From Octopus vulgaris (lineage: Eukaryota): DNA of 64,000 bases. Under the pieces are notes generated by a model. It was given only the letters and a program-made list of their open reading frames with translations. It was not told the origin of the DNA and made no database searches. The stretch covers positions 78,120,001-78,184,000 of the forward strand of contig OX597824.1 in NCBI GenBank assembly GCA_951406725.2, given 5' to 3'. The stretch's first letter is position 1, and the number at the start of each line of letters is the position of its first letter. Positions 1,364 to 58,697 of the stretch are shown here, piece by piece. The translations under genes were made by a program, and so were the position numbers.

Positions 1364-3540
1364 CTATGTTTGACTTTTGCTTTATATTTGTACAAGTTGG
1401 CTCTAAGTCTCACCCAGAGACCTCAAGAGACAACAGGGTTGGAAGTTCATGTTGTTGTTATGCCTAGTGTGCCATATATTTGGGGGGTGGGGATGTTGTA
1501 CTAATGAATGTCTAAAAAAAAAAAAAAAAAAAAAGGGGGGGGTCCTTTCTTTTAAACCGAAAATTATGTTTGTTTTAAACCTTGAGATTACATAGAGAGT
1601 ATTTTGCGTAGGATATGAGCAGTTCCCATGAGCACTATCTTTTGAACTTCTGCCATTTTTGGGTTTCCTGGTATCTGAGTTAGGTAGCTATCAGCCCCTT
1701 TTGCTATCATTCCCAGGGCACCTATGACAACAGGTATTGTTTTAGTCTTCAGCTTCCACATTTTGCTGATTTCTATTTCAAGATCTTTATATTTGCTCAG
1801 TTTTTGGTAGGTCTTGACAGATACGTTTATATCGATTGGGACAGTCATATCAATGAGGAGGCATGTTCTTTGTTTGAAGTCTTTCAATATGATGTCTGGC
1901 CTATTTGCATCTATCTTCCTGTCAGTTTGAATGGTGAAGTTCCAGAGGAGTGAGATGTGGTCATTTTCAAGCACTGGGGGTGGTTTGTGTTCCCACCAGT
2001 TTTTTTCATGGGGCAAATCCAGGTTTTTACAGATTACCCAGTGAATATATTGTGCAGCTCTATCGTGCCTGTTGAGATACTCTGTAGGCGCTAGAGGCTG
2101 CACTTGGAGACCACATGGTCAATGGTTTCATTTTGTTGCTTGCATACACGACACGTTGGACTGCTTCTGATCTTTAATATGTTGGCCTGGTAGTTTCTTG
2201 TTGGTAGGCATTGATCTTGAGCTGCTATGATAAACCCCTCTGTTTCAGATTTTAAGCCAGAGGCCATTAGCCATTGATGGGTCAGGGCTTTGTCGATATC
2301 TGCATTATTCGCTCTCTTTGGGTATTTGCCATAGAGAGGTTTTTCTTGCCATTTATTATTCAGAATATCTAAGGCCACAGTTTTGGCACGGGTTTTCATG
2401 CGCCTAGCTTTTTCTGTTCTTGTTTCTTGTATATCTATCTCTAATTCCGAAATTGGTTGTATTCGGAATTCACTTAGATATTCCTTTGCCTGTTTTGTGA
2501 CTGAGTATGATGCTTTCTTGTTTTCATGTTTTGAGACAAGTTTTAACATCCAGTCCTCAGAGTTTTTCAGGTAGGTATCTAGGCCAATTGTAGCAATCTT
2601 CATTGTTATTGCCAGTTGCAAAAGACCACGGCCTCCTCTTTTCTTGGCAGATAGAGTCGTTCTGTATCTGCCTTAGGGTGGTGCATTCTATGCATTGTCA
2701 ACAGTTTCCTTATTTTTTCTGTCGAGCTGACATATTTCAGTAATTGACCAGTTAACAATATTGAAACTGTAGGTCACGACTGGTATAGCTAATGCATTGA
2801 TCGCTTCGATCCTGTTTCTTGCATTCAGCTCTGTCTTGAGTATTGCTCTCACTCTTCGATAGCATTCTCTCCTGATCCTTTCCTTCATCTCTGAATGCCT
2901 TATTCCGTTCCCTTCAATTACCCCTAGGTACTTGTAGCTCTCCGCTGGGTCTAGTTCTTTTATGACATTCTGTTGGTCAAGGTTAACGTTAGATGTTTCT
3001 GTCATTTTTCCTTTGATAAAGGTAGCCTTTGCACATTTATCGAGGCCGAATTGCATTCTGATGTCGTCACTGAATTGTTTGACTATCGCTAGTAAGCCCT
3101 TGAGTTGTTGATCATTTTTTGCAAAAAGCTTTAAATCATCCATGTAAACGAGATGATTTATATTTTTATCAAACATTTTATACCCGTACTGCGCGTCATT
3201 GAGCAGCTTTGAGAGAGGTATTAAGGATAAACAAAAGAGGAGTGGTGACAGTGAGTCAACCTGGAAAATGCCACACGAAATTTTTACATCACCAGCATTT
3301 AGGGATTCACTGTCACTGTTCAGAGTTAGTGTGGTTCTCCATGATCTCATAATTACAGTCAAGAAGTTTCGCAGAGTTGGTGCTATCTTATACATTTCAA
3401 GGCATTTCCTAATCCAGCTATGTGGTAGGCTATCAAAAGCCTTTTTATAGTCTATCCAGGCTATTGATAAGTTTTTGTGTCGTTTGTGACAATCTTCTAA
3501 GATCATCTTATTGATGAGTAGTTGGTCTTTACAGCCGTAA
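1364..3540 (-). mobile_element. 5'-truncated, frameshifted R4/Dong-type non-LTR retrotransposon (RT, CCHC finger, restriction-like endonuclease)
   Basis: ORFs 2688-3506, 2091-2621 and 1588-2103 form one broken frame: RT motifs WIDYKKAFDS, GIFQVDSLSPLLF and YMDDLKL, then CRVCKQQNETIDHVVSKC, then RHD...RPDIILKD...LIDMTVP...K..KY. (ATT)n lies on both sides. Confidence 0.92.
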
Positions 3541-3554
3541 TTATTATTATTATT

Positions 3555-4007
3555 CAGTAGTTTTATTTTTATTTTTATAGCGTGCTTTCACTTCACTACC
3601 GAGCGCAGCTCTGTGTGCCTTGGGTATGTGCTGTGATTTGTTGTGATGCTCTGATGGTTATTGTATGGAAAGTGTTCTGCGTAGGATGTGGGCAGTGCCT
3701 AGTAGTGCAATTTTCTGTATGTTATATGTGTTTGTAAGTCCTGGTGTTTTTGTTATGTATTTGTCTGAATATTTTTTTATCATGCCTAATGCACCTACTA
3801 TGATAGGAATTGTTTCTGTTTTCAGATTCCACATTCTAGTTACCTCTATTTCCAGGTCTTTGTATTTTGAGAGTTTCTCCATTTCTTTTAGAGACACGTT
3901 GTCATCTGCCGGTATTGATACATCAATTAAAAAGCATTTTTTTCTTCATGATCTCTGACAACTATATCTGGTCTGTTGGCCTTAATTTCTCTATCTGTGT
4001 GTATCGG

Positions 4008-18949: not shown

Positions 18950-18984
<35 letters not shown>

Positions 18985-19115
18985 GGCATTATACATACAT
19001 GCCAGCGGGCATTATACATACATGCCACACGCTAAGAGGGACAATTAGTCATTTCTACCAAAAATATTCTAATCCACCGAGTGCAATTTTTCAAAGTAAG
19101 GCATTTAAAAATATA

Positions 19116-19161
19116 GACCTGTATCACAGTGATTTCATACTTACGTACTCATCAGCAGGCC
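19116..19161 (-). ncRNA. Type I hammerhead ribozyme (monomer 1)
   Basis: GGCCUG-CUGAUGA-GUAC(GUAA)GUAU-GAAA-UCACUGUGA-UA^CAGGUC has a full core, stem I GGCCUG/CAGGUC, a GNRA-capped stem II and a palindromic stem III. Confidence 0.85.
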
Positions 19162-19589
19162 TGAATGTCATCATAAACAAACGACCCTGCCCGCTTAAGT
19201 CGATCAGCTAACTGATCAACATCAACGAAGCACATGGGTGAGTTTACATATATTACATCCTGTAAATGGCATACTTTTACGAATTGCATTTCGGAGAGGA
19301 AAAGTTTTTTCGGAATAAAAATTTAGCAATTAAGGACAACTACTTAATAAGGAAAACTTAACAAGAAATTGTCAGGTAGATAGCGTGAAAACCTCATAAG
19401 AGAATAAATTTCGAAAATAATTATTTCTTATTGAACATATTAATTTATATATAGAGGGCATTATACATACATGCCAGCGGGCATTATACATACATGCCAC
19501 ACGCTAAGAGGGACAATTAGTCATTTCTACCAAAAATATTACTAATCCCACCGAGTGCAATTTTTCAAAGTAAGACATTTAAAAATATA

Positions 19590-19634
19590 GACCTGTATCA
19601 CAGTGATTTCATACTTACGTACTCATCAGAGGCC
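19590..19634 (-). ncRNA. Hammerhead ribozyme (monomer 2, one base missing in stem I)
   Basis: Same motif as 19116-19161, with CATCAGAGGCC instead of CATCAGCAGGCC on the plus strand. Confidence 0.7.
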
Positions 19635-20065
19635 TGAATGTATCATACATAAACAAACGACCCTGCCCCGCTTAAGTCGATCAGCTAACTGATCAACATC
19701 AACGAAGCACATGGGTGAGTTTACATATATTACATCCTGTAAATGGCATACTTTTACGAATTGCATTTCGGGAGAGGAAAAGTTTTTTCGGAATAAAAAT
19801 TTAGAATTAAGGACAACTACTTAATAAGGAAAACTTAACAAGAAATTGTCAGGTAGATAGCGTGAAAACCTCATAAGAGAATAAATTTCGAAAATAATTA
19901 TTTCTTATTGAACATATTAATTTATATATAGAGGGCATTATACATACATGCCAGCGGGCATTATACATACATGCCACACGCTAAGAGGGACAATTAGTCA
20001 TTTCTACCAAAAATATTACTAATCCCACCGAGTGAAATTTTCAAAGTAAGACATTTAAAAATATA

Positions 20066-20111
20066 GACCTGTATCACAGTGATTTCATACTTACGTGCTC
20101 ATCAGCAGGCC
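20066..20111 (-). ncRNA. Hammerhead ribozyme (monomer 3)
   Basis: Same motif. Stem II has GCAC instead of GUAC, giving one mismatch. Confidence 0.75.
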
Positions 20112-20541
20112 TGAATGTATCATACATAAACAAACGACCCTGCCCGCTTAAGTCGATCAGCTAACTGATCAACATCAACGAAGCACATGGGTGAGTTTAC
20201 ATATATTACATCCTGTAAATGGCATACTTTTACGAATTGCATTTCGGGAGAGGAAAAGTTTTTCGGAATAAAATTTAGCAATTAAGGACAACTACTTAAT
20301 AAGGAAAACTTAACAAGAAATTGTCAGGTAGATAGCGTGAAAACCTCATAAGAGAATAAATTTCGAAAATAATTATTTCTTATTGAACATATTAATTTAT
20401 ATATAGAGGGCATTATACATACATGCCAGCGGGCATTATACATACATGCCACACGCTAAGAGGGACAATTAGTCATTTCTACCAAAAATATTACTAATCC
20501 CACCGAGTGCAATTTTTCAAAGTAAGACATTTAAAAATATA

Positions 20542-20587
20542 GACCTGTATCACAGTGATTTCATACTTACGTACTCATCAGCAGGCC
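20542..20587 (-). ncRNA. Hammerhead ribozyme (monomer 4)
   Basis: Identical to 19116-19161. Confidence 0.85.
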
Positions 20588-21084
20588 TGAATGTATCATA
20601 CATAAACAAACGACCCTGCCGCTTACGTCGATCAGCTAACTGATCAACATCAACGAAGCACATGCAAATTGCTAAATTTTTATTCCGAAAAACTTTTCCT
20701 CTCCCGAAATGCAATTCGTAAAAGTATGCCATTTACAGGATGTAATATATGTAAACTCACCCATGTGCTCCGTTGATGTTGATCAGTTAGCTGATCGACT
20801 TAAGCGGGGCGTCTTTGTTTATGTATGTATTCAGCTTATTGATAAGGTCTATATTTTTAAATGTCTTACTTTGAAAAATTGACTATTATATATTTTGGTA
20901 GAAATGACTATTGTCCTCTTATGTGGCATGTATGTATGCCCGCTGCATGTATGTATAATGCCCTCTATATATAAATTAATATGTTCAATAGAAATAATTA
21001 TTTTCGAAATTTATTCTCTTATGAGGTTTTCACGCTATCTACCTGACAATTTCTTGTTAAGTTTTCCTTATTAAGTAGTTGTCC

Positions 21085-21130
<46 letters not shown>

Positions 21131-29703: not shown

Positions 29704-30153
29704 TATTTCTTTACTACCCACAAGGGGCTAAACACAGTTTTTTTACTACCCACAAGGGGTTAAACACGGAGGGAACAAACAAGGACAGACAAACGGATTA
29801 AGTCGATTACATCGACCCCAGGGCGTAACTGGTACTTAATTTATCGACCCCGAAAGGATGAAAGGCAAAGTCGACCTCGGCGGAATTTGAACTCAGAACG
29901 TAACGGCAGACGAAATACCTATTTCTTTACTACCCACAAGGGGCTAAACACAGAGGGAACAAACAAGGACAGACAAACAGATTAAGTCGATTACATCGAC
30001 CCCAGTGCGTAACTGGTACTTAATTTATCGACCCCGAAAGGATGAAAGGCAAAGTCGACCTCGGCGGAATTTGAACCCAGAATGTAACGGCAGACGAAAT
30101 ACGGCTACGCATTTCGCCCGGCGTGCTAACGTTTCTCCCAGCTCGCCGCCTTT
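29704..30153 (-). mobile_element. SINE family C with two body units
   Basis: TSD CAGAACTGGTTATA at 29690-29703 and 30154-30167. Confidence 0.85.
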
Positions 30154-32080: not shown

Positions 32081-32480
32081 GGATTTTTTCGGTTTGAACG
32101 GCAGTTTTTTCTAGCGGTGTCATATGAAATTGTCACCCATAATTATGACCCTAGTATCGATCTATTGCATTTCAATCTGTTTTAGGATTAGGGTTAGTTG
32201 GGGTTAGGGTTAGGGGTAGGGTTAGGGGTAGGGGAAGGGTGTCTTTTTTTCTTCACAAATGTAAATAAACCCAATCTGTTTCTTAAACGAGGGACATATT
32301 CATACGGCACAGAATGTCTTCACCTCAATAGACGTCATTGATTGGTTGAAATTGCAGAAATTGAAGAAAAATAACAACAAATATCTTACAAACTATAGAA
32401 CTTTCTCAATAAAGCCAAGAGAAAAAGATGTTTTATAAACACATTCTACCAGTATACGAAGTTTAAAAGTGTTTAGTTAC
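32081..32480. mobile_element. Third copy of the TTAGGG-containing TIR element, ending at an adjacent SINE
   Basis: Colinear with 53927-54320 and ends at the tail of a family A SINE. Confidence 0.85.
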
Positions 32481-32783: not shown

Positions 32784-33259
32784 GAAACTCGGCGAGCTGG
32801 AAGAATCGTTATCACGCCATCCAAAATGCTTAGAAGCATTTCGACCATCTGTATGTTCTAAGTGTAAATAATGCCGACGTCGACTTTGCTTTTCATCCTT
32901 TCGGAGTCGATGAAATAAGTACCAGTTGAACGTTGGGAGTTGATGGAATTAATTTACCCTTTCCACTGAAAATGATGGTCTTCTGCCAAAATTTGGAATT
33001 AATATATGAACAACTATACTATGCAACCAGTAGAGTGAGACAATTGACCAAATTATTTCTGTTTACCCTGTTACGGGTATGAGGGAATCGTTACTATTAT
33101 CTGCTGGGAAATATGCCGATTCTTCGACGCGAAAACACCATTTTAACCAAGATATTCCACTGCGTGGCACCTTGGGTGAGTGTCTTCTTCTATAGCCTCG
33201 GGCCGACCAAAACCTTGTGAGTGGATTTGGTAGAAGGAAACTGAAAGAAACCCGTCGTA

Positions 33260-33300
<41 letters not shown>

Positions 33301-33303
<3 letters not shown>

Positions 33304-33748
33304 AAATAGGATAAATTCTTAATAAGAAATCTTAATAAGAAATTATCAGGTAGTTAGCGTGAAAAACCTCATAAGAGAAAAAATCTGTAAATTTTTTCAC
33401 TTGAAGATATTTATTTATATTATATAGAGGGCATTATTACACATAAATGCCACACGCTAGGAGGGACTTTTAAAGTCATAACTACCAAAAATAAACAAAT
33501 CGTACCGAATGCAATTCTCGAAGCGAGACATTTAAAAGCAGAATTTAGTTCCAGATCACCTGTGATTTCGCAATTAACATATTATTTACGTCTCTTGCTC
33601 TTCAGTGAAACGAATTTAAAATATATCATAAATGAACAAAACCAGCATACCAACATGCATTCGGTACAATTTGTTTATTTTTGGTAGTTATGACTTTAAA
33701 AGTCCCTCCTAGCGTGTGGCATTTATGTGTAATAATACCCTCTATATA

Positions 33749-33755
<7 letters not shown>
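33301..33755 (-). mobile_element. Divergent homolog of the HHR monomer with a partial inverted copy, inside the (TA)n of a SINE
   Basis: Shares TCAGGTAG.TAGCGTGAAAA.CCTCATAAGAGA, GAGGGCATTAT and ATGCCACACGCTA.GAGGGAC with the array. ~33657-33755 inverts ~33412-33512. Confidence 0.85.
33548..33611 (-). ncRNA. Type I hammerhead ribozyme
   Basis: GUUUCA-CUGAAGA-GCAA(...)UUGC-GAAA-UCACAGGUGA-UC^UGGAAC. All three stems pair. Confidence 0.85.
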
Positions 33756-33823
<68 letters not shown>

Positions 33824-37347: not shown

Positions 37348-38185
37348 AGGGCCTTGAAGTGATGGTATCTGCTTGTTTAACGCTCTTCTCCACAGGAACT
37401 CTCATGAGTTGCGGTAACAAGCTATGTGGGTGACCTATCTGGAGTTATCCCTGAGTACTTTGATGTATTGTGACTTGATACCTTACATTTCCAGAGGCTT
37501 CAGCGGAGTGAACCACACTACATGATTGCACAACCACCACTGGACTGGATATGTCACCATATTTACTGACAAAGATGGATCTGTATAATTGCCGAGTGGC
37601 ATCCAAGAAATAGGAAAAGGCTACTCAAAAGACTTCCACAATGATAGATTTGATTAAATGATTTGGGCCTTGATAGAATCGAAGGGTGCAACAAGAAAGA
37701 AATGGAAACCTATTGTGACAAGCAGTGTAGAGCAGCATGTTGATAATCTGGTTGACACAAGTGATTCAGGTAATGGCATCCAATTATATTTACAATGTAA
37801 TTGAAATCAGCGGATGCAAATAACCAAATATTGAAAAGTACGCAGGATCATATGATATAAACTACATCTTGTGTTTTACCATACATATGTCCTATTTCGT
37901 AAACCATATCCCTTAAGGCTGCAAATTACCGTAGTAAGCACACCACTTTATAGGAAGTACACTGGAACAATGATACAATTAACAATCGTGCATGCTGCTA
38001 TATCCTCATCTTATTATACTCACTTGTTTATTTGATAGCCTGATGACATGGGAGTTACATAACGCATTACGCACTCCAAGTAATTGCATTATGCTTCAAC
38101 ATTCCTAATGAAACAATTGTAGCAATGCCAGATAATCCTTTTGTCTGTTATTATTATTCTTGTTTATATCATAATGATGATGATG

Positions 38186-39009
<824 letters not shown>

Positions 39010-53926: not shown

Positions 53927-54358
53927 GGAACTTTTCGGTTTGAACGGCAGTTTTTTCTAGCGGTGTCATATGAAATTGTCACCCATAATTATGACCCTAG
54001 CATCGATCTGTTGCATTTCAATCTCTTTTAGGGTTAGGGTTAGTTAGGGTTAGGGTTAGAGGTGGGGGGAAGGGTATATTTTTTTCTTCACAAATGTAAA
54101 TAAACCCAATCTGTTTCTTAAACGAGGGACATATTCATACGGCACAGAATGCTTTTTAATTCATAAGACGTCACTGATTGATTGAAATTGCAGAAATTGA
54201 AGGAAAAAACAACAAATATCTTACAAACTATAGAATTTTTTCAATAAAGCCAAGAGAAAAAGATGTTTTATAAACACATTCTATCAGTATACGAAGTTTA
54301 AAATTTTTTAGTTACCTAGAAATTATGTTAAAAATTGCCTTTCAAACCGAAAAGATCC
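53927..54358. mobile_element. Complete ~430-bp TIR element with internal (TTAGGG)n-like tract
   Basis: Imperfect TIRs GGAACTTTTCGGTTTGAACGGCAG ... TTGCCTTTCAAACCGAAAAGATCC, TTAGGG repeats at ~54028-54058, and a 29-bp flanking direct repeat. Confidence 0.85.
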
Positions 54359-58124: not shown

Positions 58125-58697
58125 CATTTCTATGCCTAGATTTTGTGGTGAAGTGTAAACCAATTACATCGACCCTAGTATTCAACTGCTACTTAATTTA
58201 TCGACCCGGTATGGGATGAAAGGCAAATTGAACCTCGGCGGAATTTGAACTCAGAACGTAGCGGCAGACGAAATACCTATTTCTTTACTACCTACAAGGG
58301 GCTAAACACAGAGAGGACAAACAAGGACAGACAAACGGATTAAGTCTAGTACATCGACTCCAGTGCGTAACTGGTACTTATTTAATCGGCCCCGAAAGAA
58401 TGAACGTCGAAAGTCGACATCGGCGGAATTTGAACTCAGAACATAGCGACAGACGAAATACCTGTTTCTTTACTACCCACAAGGAACTAAACACAGAGGG
58501 AACAAACAAGGACAGACATAGGTATTAAGTCGATTATATCGACCCCAGTGCCTAACTGGTACTTAATTTATCAACTCCGAAAGGATGAAAGGCAAAGTCG
58601 ACCTCGGCGGAATTTGAACTCAGAATGTAGCGGCAGACGAAAGACCGCTAAACATTTCGCCCGGCGTGCTAACGGTTCTACCAGCTCGCCGCCTTCA
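58125..58697 (-). mobile_element. SINE family C with three body units
   Basis: TSD AGCAATTAAATAAT at 58111-58124 and 58698-58711. Older family C copies lie near 5630, 30300, 32790, 36370, 54880, 57745, 57900, 58715 and 61545. Confidence 0.85.

Follow-up and report, generated by a model that had tools for sequence, protein, structure and literature searches.

A truncated two-armed copy of a hammerhead repeat in Octopus vulgaris, probably an animal non-LTR retrozyme mobilised by a Penelope-like element

We analysed a 64,000-nucleotide stretch of the Octopus vulgaris genome (assembly GCA_951406725.2, contig OX597824.1, positions 78,120,001 to 78,184,000 of the forward strand; hereafter the window). 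We interpret the insertion at positions 33301-33762 of the window, with a probability of about 0.8, as a truncated two-armed copy of a non-coding hammerhead repeat of ~470 nt, i.e. an animal non-LTR retrozyme, likely copied in trans by the reverse transcriptase (RT)-endonuclease of a Penelope-like element (PLE) and with a hammerhead whose function is likely kept up solely in those source copies which spread. This kind of element is already known; the novelty lies in a quantified covariation of the ribozyme stems and in the neutral decay of the inserted copies. The insertion, its target and a related array of the same window are arranged as follows.

18965..20664, minus strand: family-A array with four hammerheads (cores at 20581, 20105, 19629 and 19155) in ~3.6 units of 477 bp; the 3' end lies at site S1
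20667..21089, plus strand: inverted arm that gives the family-A array the same layout as the 33301-33762 insertion; its 3' end lies at site S2 and leads into (TA)n
33129..33257, plus strand: dispersed SINE-like repeat (a putative SINE) of family D20, whose TA tract took the insertion
33258..33300, no strand: left portion of the (TA)n target, flanking the insertion
33301..33655, minus strand: main arm in hammerhead sense, a copy of the family-B unit (~470 nt) truncated at its 5' side, 3' end at site S2
33301..33406, minus strand: 'tail' separating the two end sites, S1 and S2, on the main arm only
33548..33611, minus strand: type I hammerhead, predicted cut after C17 (33554)
33611-33606, minus strand: 5' strand of hammerhead stem I, GUUUCA
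33605-33599, minus strand: hammerhead core CUGAAGA
33570..33598, minus strand: bipartite stem II, GCAA-(21 nt)-UUGC, with a 4-bp inner helix, a 2x2 internal loop, a 6-bp outer helix and a 5-nt loop
33569-33566, minus strand: GAAA of the hammerhead
33566-33555, minus strand: palindromic stem III of the hammerhead, AUCAC-AG-GUGAU
33554, minus strand: C17, with the predicted cut directly after it
33553-33548, minus strand: 3' strand of hammerhead stem I, UGGAAC
33656..33762, plus strand: inverted arm, joined head-to-head to the main arm and matching 33407-33513 at 97% identity; its 3' end lies at site S1 and continues into (TA)n
33763..33820, no strand: right portion of the (TA)n target, flanking the insertion

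An earlier, sequence-only reading had described an element aligning with the monomer of the array. The alignment stands, with ~74% identity to the array over query positions 8-237, but the element is not one monomer: it consists of a main arm of 355 nt and an inverted copy of 107 nt. Compared with the full family-B unit (470 nt in copy L025), the main arm is truncated ~100 nt upstream of the cut. No large target-site duplication (TSD) is visible at the (TA)n target, where the TA repeat would mask any duplication. Because this copy carries a single hammerhead, it would presumably be a dead end. Elsewhere in the window, a SINE-like repeat occurs as tandem copies of 184-185 bp (29738-30102 and 58165-58646), short degenerate TTAGGG runs lie at 32182-32240 and 54028-54059, and two broken LINE-type reading frames are present at 1591-3587 (minus strand, with an RVT_1 match for 2691-3587) and 38047-38736 (plus strand), which we take to belong to a restriction-like endonuclease LINE.

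Read on the minus strand, 33548-33611 satisfies the type I layout, namely a CUGANGA, GAAA and UH core and three helices with helix I open, which bears out the hammerhead originally proposed there along with its stems. The GCAA/UUGC pairing of stem II is likewise present, but what had been taken for a long loop contains a further 6-bp helix. Catalysis is predicted from the sequence, with a putative cleavage triplet AUC versus AUA in the family-A array. In three of the four array units, with small changes, the hammerhead reads GGCCUG CUGAUGA GUAC-GUAA-GUAU GAA AUCAC U GUGAU A CAGGUC; the unit at 19629 lacks one stem I base. An Rfam search returned no match at the gathering score, and no hammerhead appeared among the 150 listed of 197 matches with E≤1. 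The inverted arm of the array is oddly divergent, possibly through an assembly artefact at the palindrome: its portion 20667-20973 has lost the hammerhead, carries many small deletions and matches the unit at only 83% identity, and its last 120 nt are 99% identical.

The family is widespread in the genome. A hammerhead pattern gave at least 914 matches versus none for the reversed pattern, and a 3' motif independent of the hammerhead gave 1346 versus none for its control; searches with the hammerhead region initially yielded 1117 (family B) and 755 (family A) candidates. Full units measure 459-496 nt with 33-34% GC and fall into seven full-monomer types that are 64-91% identical, and 26 real copies were hand-picked as subfamily representatives, many more than the 'at least two subfamilies' first suggested. 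Retention of the CUGANGA, GAAA and UH core, also put forward by the sequence-only reading, extends to 45 of 49 units picked independently of the hammerhead. Non-coding, low-GC tandem units with a hammerhead in each are a feature of the superfamily (the family-A array, L134 and L155), and no tandem double-hammerhead copy occurs among the best 30 family-B loci. An antisense open frame of ~100 codons in families B and C is closed in family A and was discarded. Single-copy core variants CCGAUGA and CCAAUGA were seen in L145 and L160. Older and remoter hammerhead repeats (L211-L240; 30 pattern matches versus 0 in the control; examples at G000:C1:159161045 and 159161464) retain the AUCAC/GUGAU stem III and (TA)n-type flanks, one of them with a 419-bp period.

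Whether stem sequences turned over while structure was kept, as had been claimed from the window, is only suggested by the two in-window sequences alone, which differ by four double changes in stem I, several of them on one long branch. Across subfamilies, the covariation of stems I and II holds under a tree-keeping null and against shuffled and slid controls. Nineteen representatives entered the main test, the other seven having a stem I out of register; a one-base bulge restores 6/6 stem I pairs in six of these seven. In the null, the 3' partner was swapped for a flank column with a similar parsimony-change count on the flank tree, flank columns being relabelled in the most favourable way. 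All six stem I positions are paired in 19/19 representatives, with GC or AU at I.1, UA, CG or UG at I.2, five pair types at I.3, CG or UA at I.4, GU, UA or CG at I.5, and a fixed I.6. For the stem I pairs varying on both sides, 95/95 cells are paired (null 76.7±5.6, P<1e-5), and for stems I and II together 146/152 (null 121.3±7.2); none of 200,000 null draws reached either observed value. Stem I was absent from both genome-wide patterns, and the 11 representatives also recovered by the hammerhead-blind motif gave 55/55 (null 42.4). Forcing five bulged subfamilies into register gave 116/120 (null 95.7). Taken singly, only I.3 (0.021) and I.5 (0/69) pass and most pairs are not significant alone, because several changes fall on the long branch separating A-like from B/C-like sequences. 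A pair counter applied to an independent MAFFT alignment found 94.8% of cells paired, 12 pairs with double changes and 69 double-change cells versus 24.6 after shuffling, a control that ignores relatedness; slid registers were 26-38% paired.

The other parts of the motif vary less regularly or not at all. Stem II pair II.1 occurs as G-C, G-U or A-U, with an A·C mismatch in 3/19 representatives, and II.4 is U·U in 3/19; the II.1 A·C recurs in many copies and whole subfamilies (L011, L018, L023, L028, L029, L124, L134, L143, L150 and L153). Beyond its six pairs, stem I is extended past an internal loop, but this extension, which bears on a loop I-loop II tertiary contact, is conserved in part only, its outer pairs being paired in 9-19 of 19 representatives. 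Stem III does not covary: it is invariant (5/5 pairs never vary) and offers no covariation evidence for that reason; it was fixed in the hammerhead pattern search and is nearly fixed in hammerhead-blind units too. In the core of the 19 representatives, N7 is free (U, A or C) and H17 is never G. A consensus fold of the whole monomer has double changes at 32/137 pairs, a count made with no null and not used as evidence.

Selection for ribozyme function had been proposed from the conserved structure, and this proposal survives for the replicating source elements but not for their inserted products. Private mutations in 44 inserted units (26 of family B and 18 of family F) affect 7/484 core positions (1.45%), 20/1232 stem positions (1.62%) and 99/7884 flank positions (1.26%), with p=0.29-0.67. 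Inserted copies hence decay neutrally: with core, stems and flanks mutated alike, they are unprotected, and selection would act on source copies rather than on a host function; we infer that the hammerhead is under selection in replicating source elements only. A ribozyme RNA domesticated by the host and selected at genomic loci would account for the covariation and the core conservation across subfamilies; the equal mutation frequencies and the residence of this copy in a SINE microsatellite make it highly improbable.

The insertion ends are strongly constrained. Seventy of the 1346 matches to the 3' motif were fetched from the first 100 listed (C1-C2) and, with four duplicates dropped, gave 66 loci with 102 arms, whose 3' ends lie at S1 (52) or S2 (50), 105-122 nt apart, nearly all of them into (TA)n. 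These loci include 35 head-to-head pairs, four of which have an unclassifiable end; 30 of the other 31 combine one S1 and one S2 end, where independent ends would predict about half. In a partly overlapping set of 38 pairs the proportion is 33/34, and the two exceptions are short nested fragments. The rule also holds for both insertions of the window and for an array of 31 units (G000:C1:64638000-64656000; L244 and L245). The tail of 105-122 nt is thus on one arm only in 30/31 and 33/34 pairs, as with two RT start sites. The length of the inverted arm varies from copy to copy, the arms are asymmetric (S1 versus S2), and 5' truncation, which is polar, is met in the family together with partial tandems and the head-to-head inverted arm.

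Could such copies have spread as DNA, in the manner of a satellite or a MITE, the hammerhead being a fossil of a Penelope repeat? Terminal inverted arms with TA flanks do look MITE-like, and in the array of 31 units, which carries 10 substitutions over 14,432 bases, two variant columns recur in non-adjacent units, as fits unequal exchange; the array itself leaves rolling-circle copying and later expansion undistinguished. Arm lengths that differ in each copy, the S1/S2 asymmetry and the polar truncation speak against spread as DNA, from which covariation of RNA stems is not expected either. Polarity and the S1+S2 rule largely refute it, and we give it very little credence.

The insertions look Penelope-made by their (TA)n target, 5' truncation and head-to-head arms. 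PLEs are described as 5'-truncated and biased towards (TA)n, with an arm in inverted orientation and a tail that is often confined to one end (PMC8557442, PMC3846280); reverse transcription can start at two internal sites, and the enzyme is predicted to be a dimer (PMC11167929). Among arms reaching position +30, 50/59 cross the cleavage site, with no stop peak there; the templates are therefore mostly uncleaved multimers or circles. Cleaved linear monomers were rejected as the copy source, the stop hazard at the cut site (0.15) showing no peak relative to neighbouring bins (0.16-0.22). In the predicted fold of the seven monomer types, an invariant UAGCGUG/CACGCUA pairing, ~+94 to +215 from the cut site, encloses S1; this pairing is a candidate enzyme-binding domain.

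Copying through the cut site also suits a different role for the hammerhead, in which the Penelope enzyme and RNA packaging rely on its conserved fold as a signal, structural or protein-binding, while cleavage is slow or dispensable. Alternative folds are predicted to outscore the hammerhead fold, and II.1 mismatches are spread across whole subfamilies. For the PLE PAc, insertion in vitro does not need cleavage, hammerhead mutants still insert and hammerhead cleavage requires protein (PMC11167929). A circle, which needs prior cleavage, equally predicts copying across the site, however, and the core, including the free N7 and an H17 that is never G, obeys catalytic rules while the stems turn over; we consider a purely structural role unlikely.

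Folding predictions fit cleavage that depends on dimers, a behaviour reported for type I hammerheads of metazoans (PMC4209133, PMC7229834). By itself, the stem III palindrome folds into no hairpin, and it is predicted to form a duplex of -11.2 kcal/mol. The nearest-neighbour minimum free energy structure is an alternative fold in 19/19 representatives; for the 18 that were scored, it is more stable than the hammerhead fold by 0.4-5 kcal/mol. Circular monomers are predicted to fold better than their shuffles in 4/4 cases (z -2.4, -7.0, -3.2 and -6.4). Of nine Xenopus retrozyme dimers, only one cleaved in vitro (bioRxiv 10.64898/2026.07.22.740005). In the octopus, assembled contigs of four sequencing runs, not on record as RNA, cover parts of the family-B unit, their ends, strand and level not being readable.

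On the retrozyme reading, which the tested features make probable together with Penelope mobilisation, tandem source arrays would be transcribed, and the hammerhead, probably dimeric via its invariant palindromic stem III, would cut multimers to unit length; the unit-length RNAs may circularise. A Penelope enzyme, probably dimeric as well, would nick a (TA)n tract on each of its strands and start two cDNAs, one from each of the sites S1 and S2, on an RNA template that is either multimeric or circular; both cDNAs would end prematurely and be joined head-to-head. A bolder version, possible but doubtful, holds that a radiation of viroid-like RNA circles of ~470 nt, unrelated in sequence to any resident Penelope element, recruits a Penelope dimer through structure alone, that a single circle offers two fixed sites from which the two target strands are primed, and that a conserved alternative fold and the palindromic stem III serve as a switch for dimer-only cutting.

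PLEs that target (TA)n are abundant in the genome. Two PLE families were compared with the unit in search of a partner, one Neptune-like with 19,431 candidates, the other a further GIY-YIG family with 17,518 candidates. An optional tail of ~40 nt was present at 7, lacking at 17 and unclear at 5 of 29 loci. No autonomous PLE sharing the sequence of the unit was found in the Neptune-like family (29 loci) or the second GIY-YIG family (19 loci), which have only short AT-rich matches to it (E>=0.002); a 38-nt antisense AT-rich match (E 0.003) was dismissed as chance, not being kept in family A. Among the hammerhead loci checked, no PLE open reading frame (ORF) is continuous with any hammerhead unit, and PLE frames near these loci were rejected as partners, being instead hosts or neighbours of the insertion. 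One young Neptune-like PLE (L241:1327-4140) has an open frame of 811 aa with an RVT_1 match and, by eye, a GIY-YIG-like end; it ends in (TA)n with the optional ~40-nt tail, and its 3' region contains half a hammerhead only (GAAA-CCGG-UA).

Two described groups resemble the octopus family. Animal non-LTR retrozymes, as presented by Cervera & de la Pena 2020 (PMC7229834) and by Li, Clavereau & Pollet 2026 (bioRxiv 10.64898/2026.07.22.740005), likewise consist of non-coding low-GC tandem units that each carry a type I hammerhead and occur as anything from monomers to ~30-mers. They too form several families in a genome, have a circle predicted to be self-paired and co-occur with PLEs, and they have been proposed to be non-autonomous PLE derivatives (bioRxiv 10.64898/2026.07.22.740005). 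The octopus units, at 459-496 nt, exceed the 150-450 bp given there as typical, and the 350-390 bp of mussel units (PMC7229834), while falling inside the 51-972 of Li et al. Their stem III is a 5-bp palindrome with a 1-2-nt loop versus 1-2 bp in the retrozymes described, stem II is often bipartite, and insertion is into (TA)n, where no large TSD can be seen. Endonuclease-bearing (EN+) PLEs and their non-autonomous pLTR derivatives, as described in PMC8557442, PMC3846280, PMC4209133 and PMC11167929, share 5' truncation, partial tandems, the head-to-head arm, the one-end tail, two RT start sites, microsatellite targeting and a hammerhead in the repeat. In contrast to these, the octopus unit has no ORF, its use of one S1 and one S2 is nearly strict and its tail, at 105-122 nt, is roughly triple the 30-40 nt described. 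In the octopus and cephalopod literature on hammerhead ribozymes and PLEs, with subscription papers mostly outside this scope, we found no description of the family.

The current picture of these elements is not overturned by our results. Two published results bear on the role of the hammerhead in Penelope elements and retrozymes: cleavage was dispensable for PAc insertion in vitro, and eight of nine Xenopus dimers did not cleave. Here, ~20 natural subfamilies indicate that selection maintains the fold in lineages that replicate but not in copies once inserted, and they provide a ready-made set of compensatory and mismatch variants. Models of inverted insertion by Penelope enzymes have to accommodate the near-strict rule of one S1 and one S2 end.
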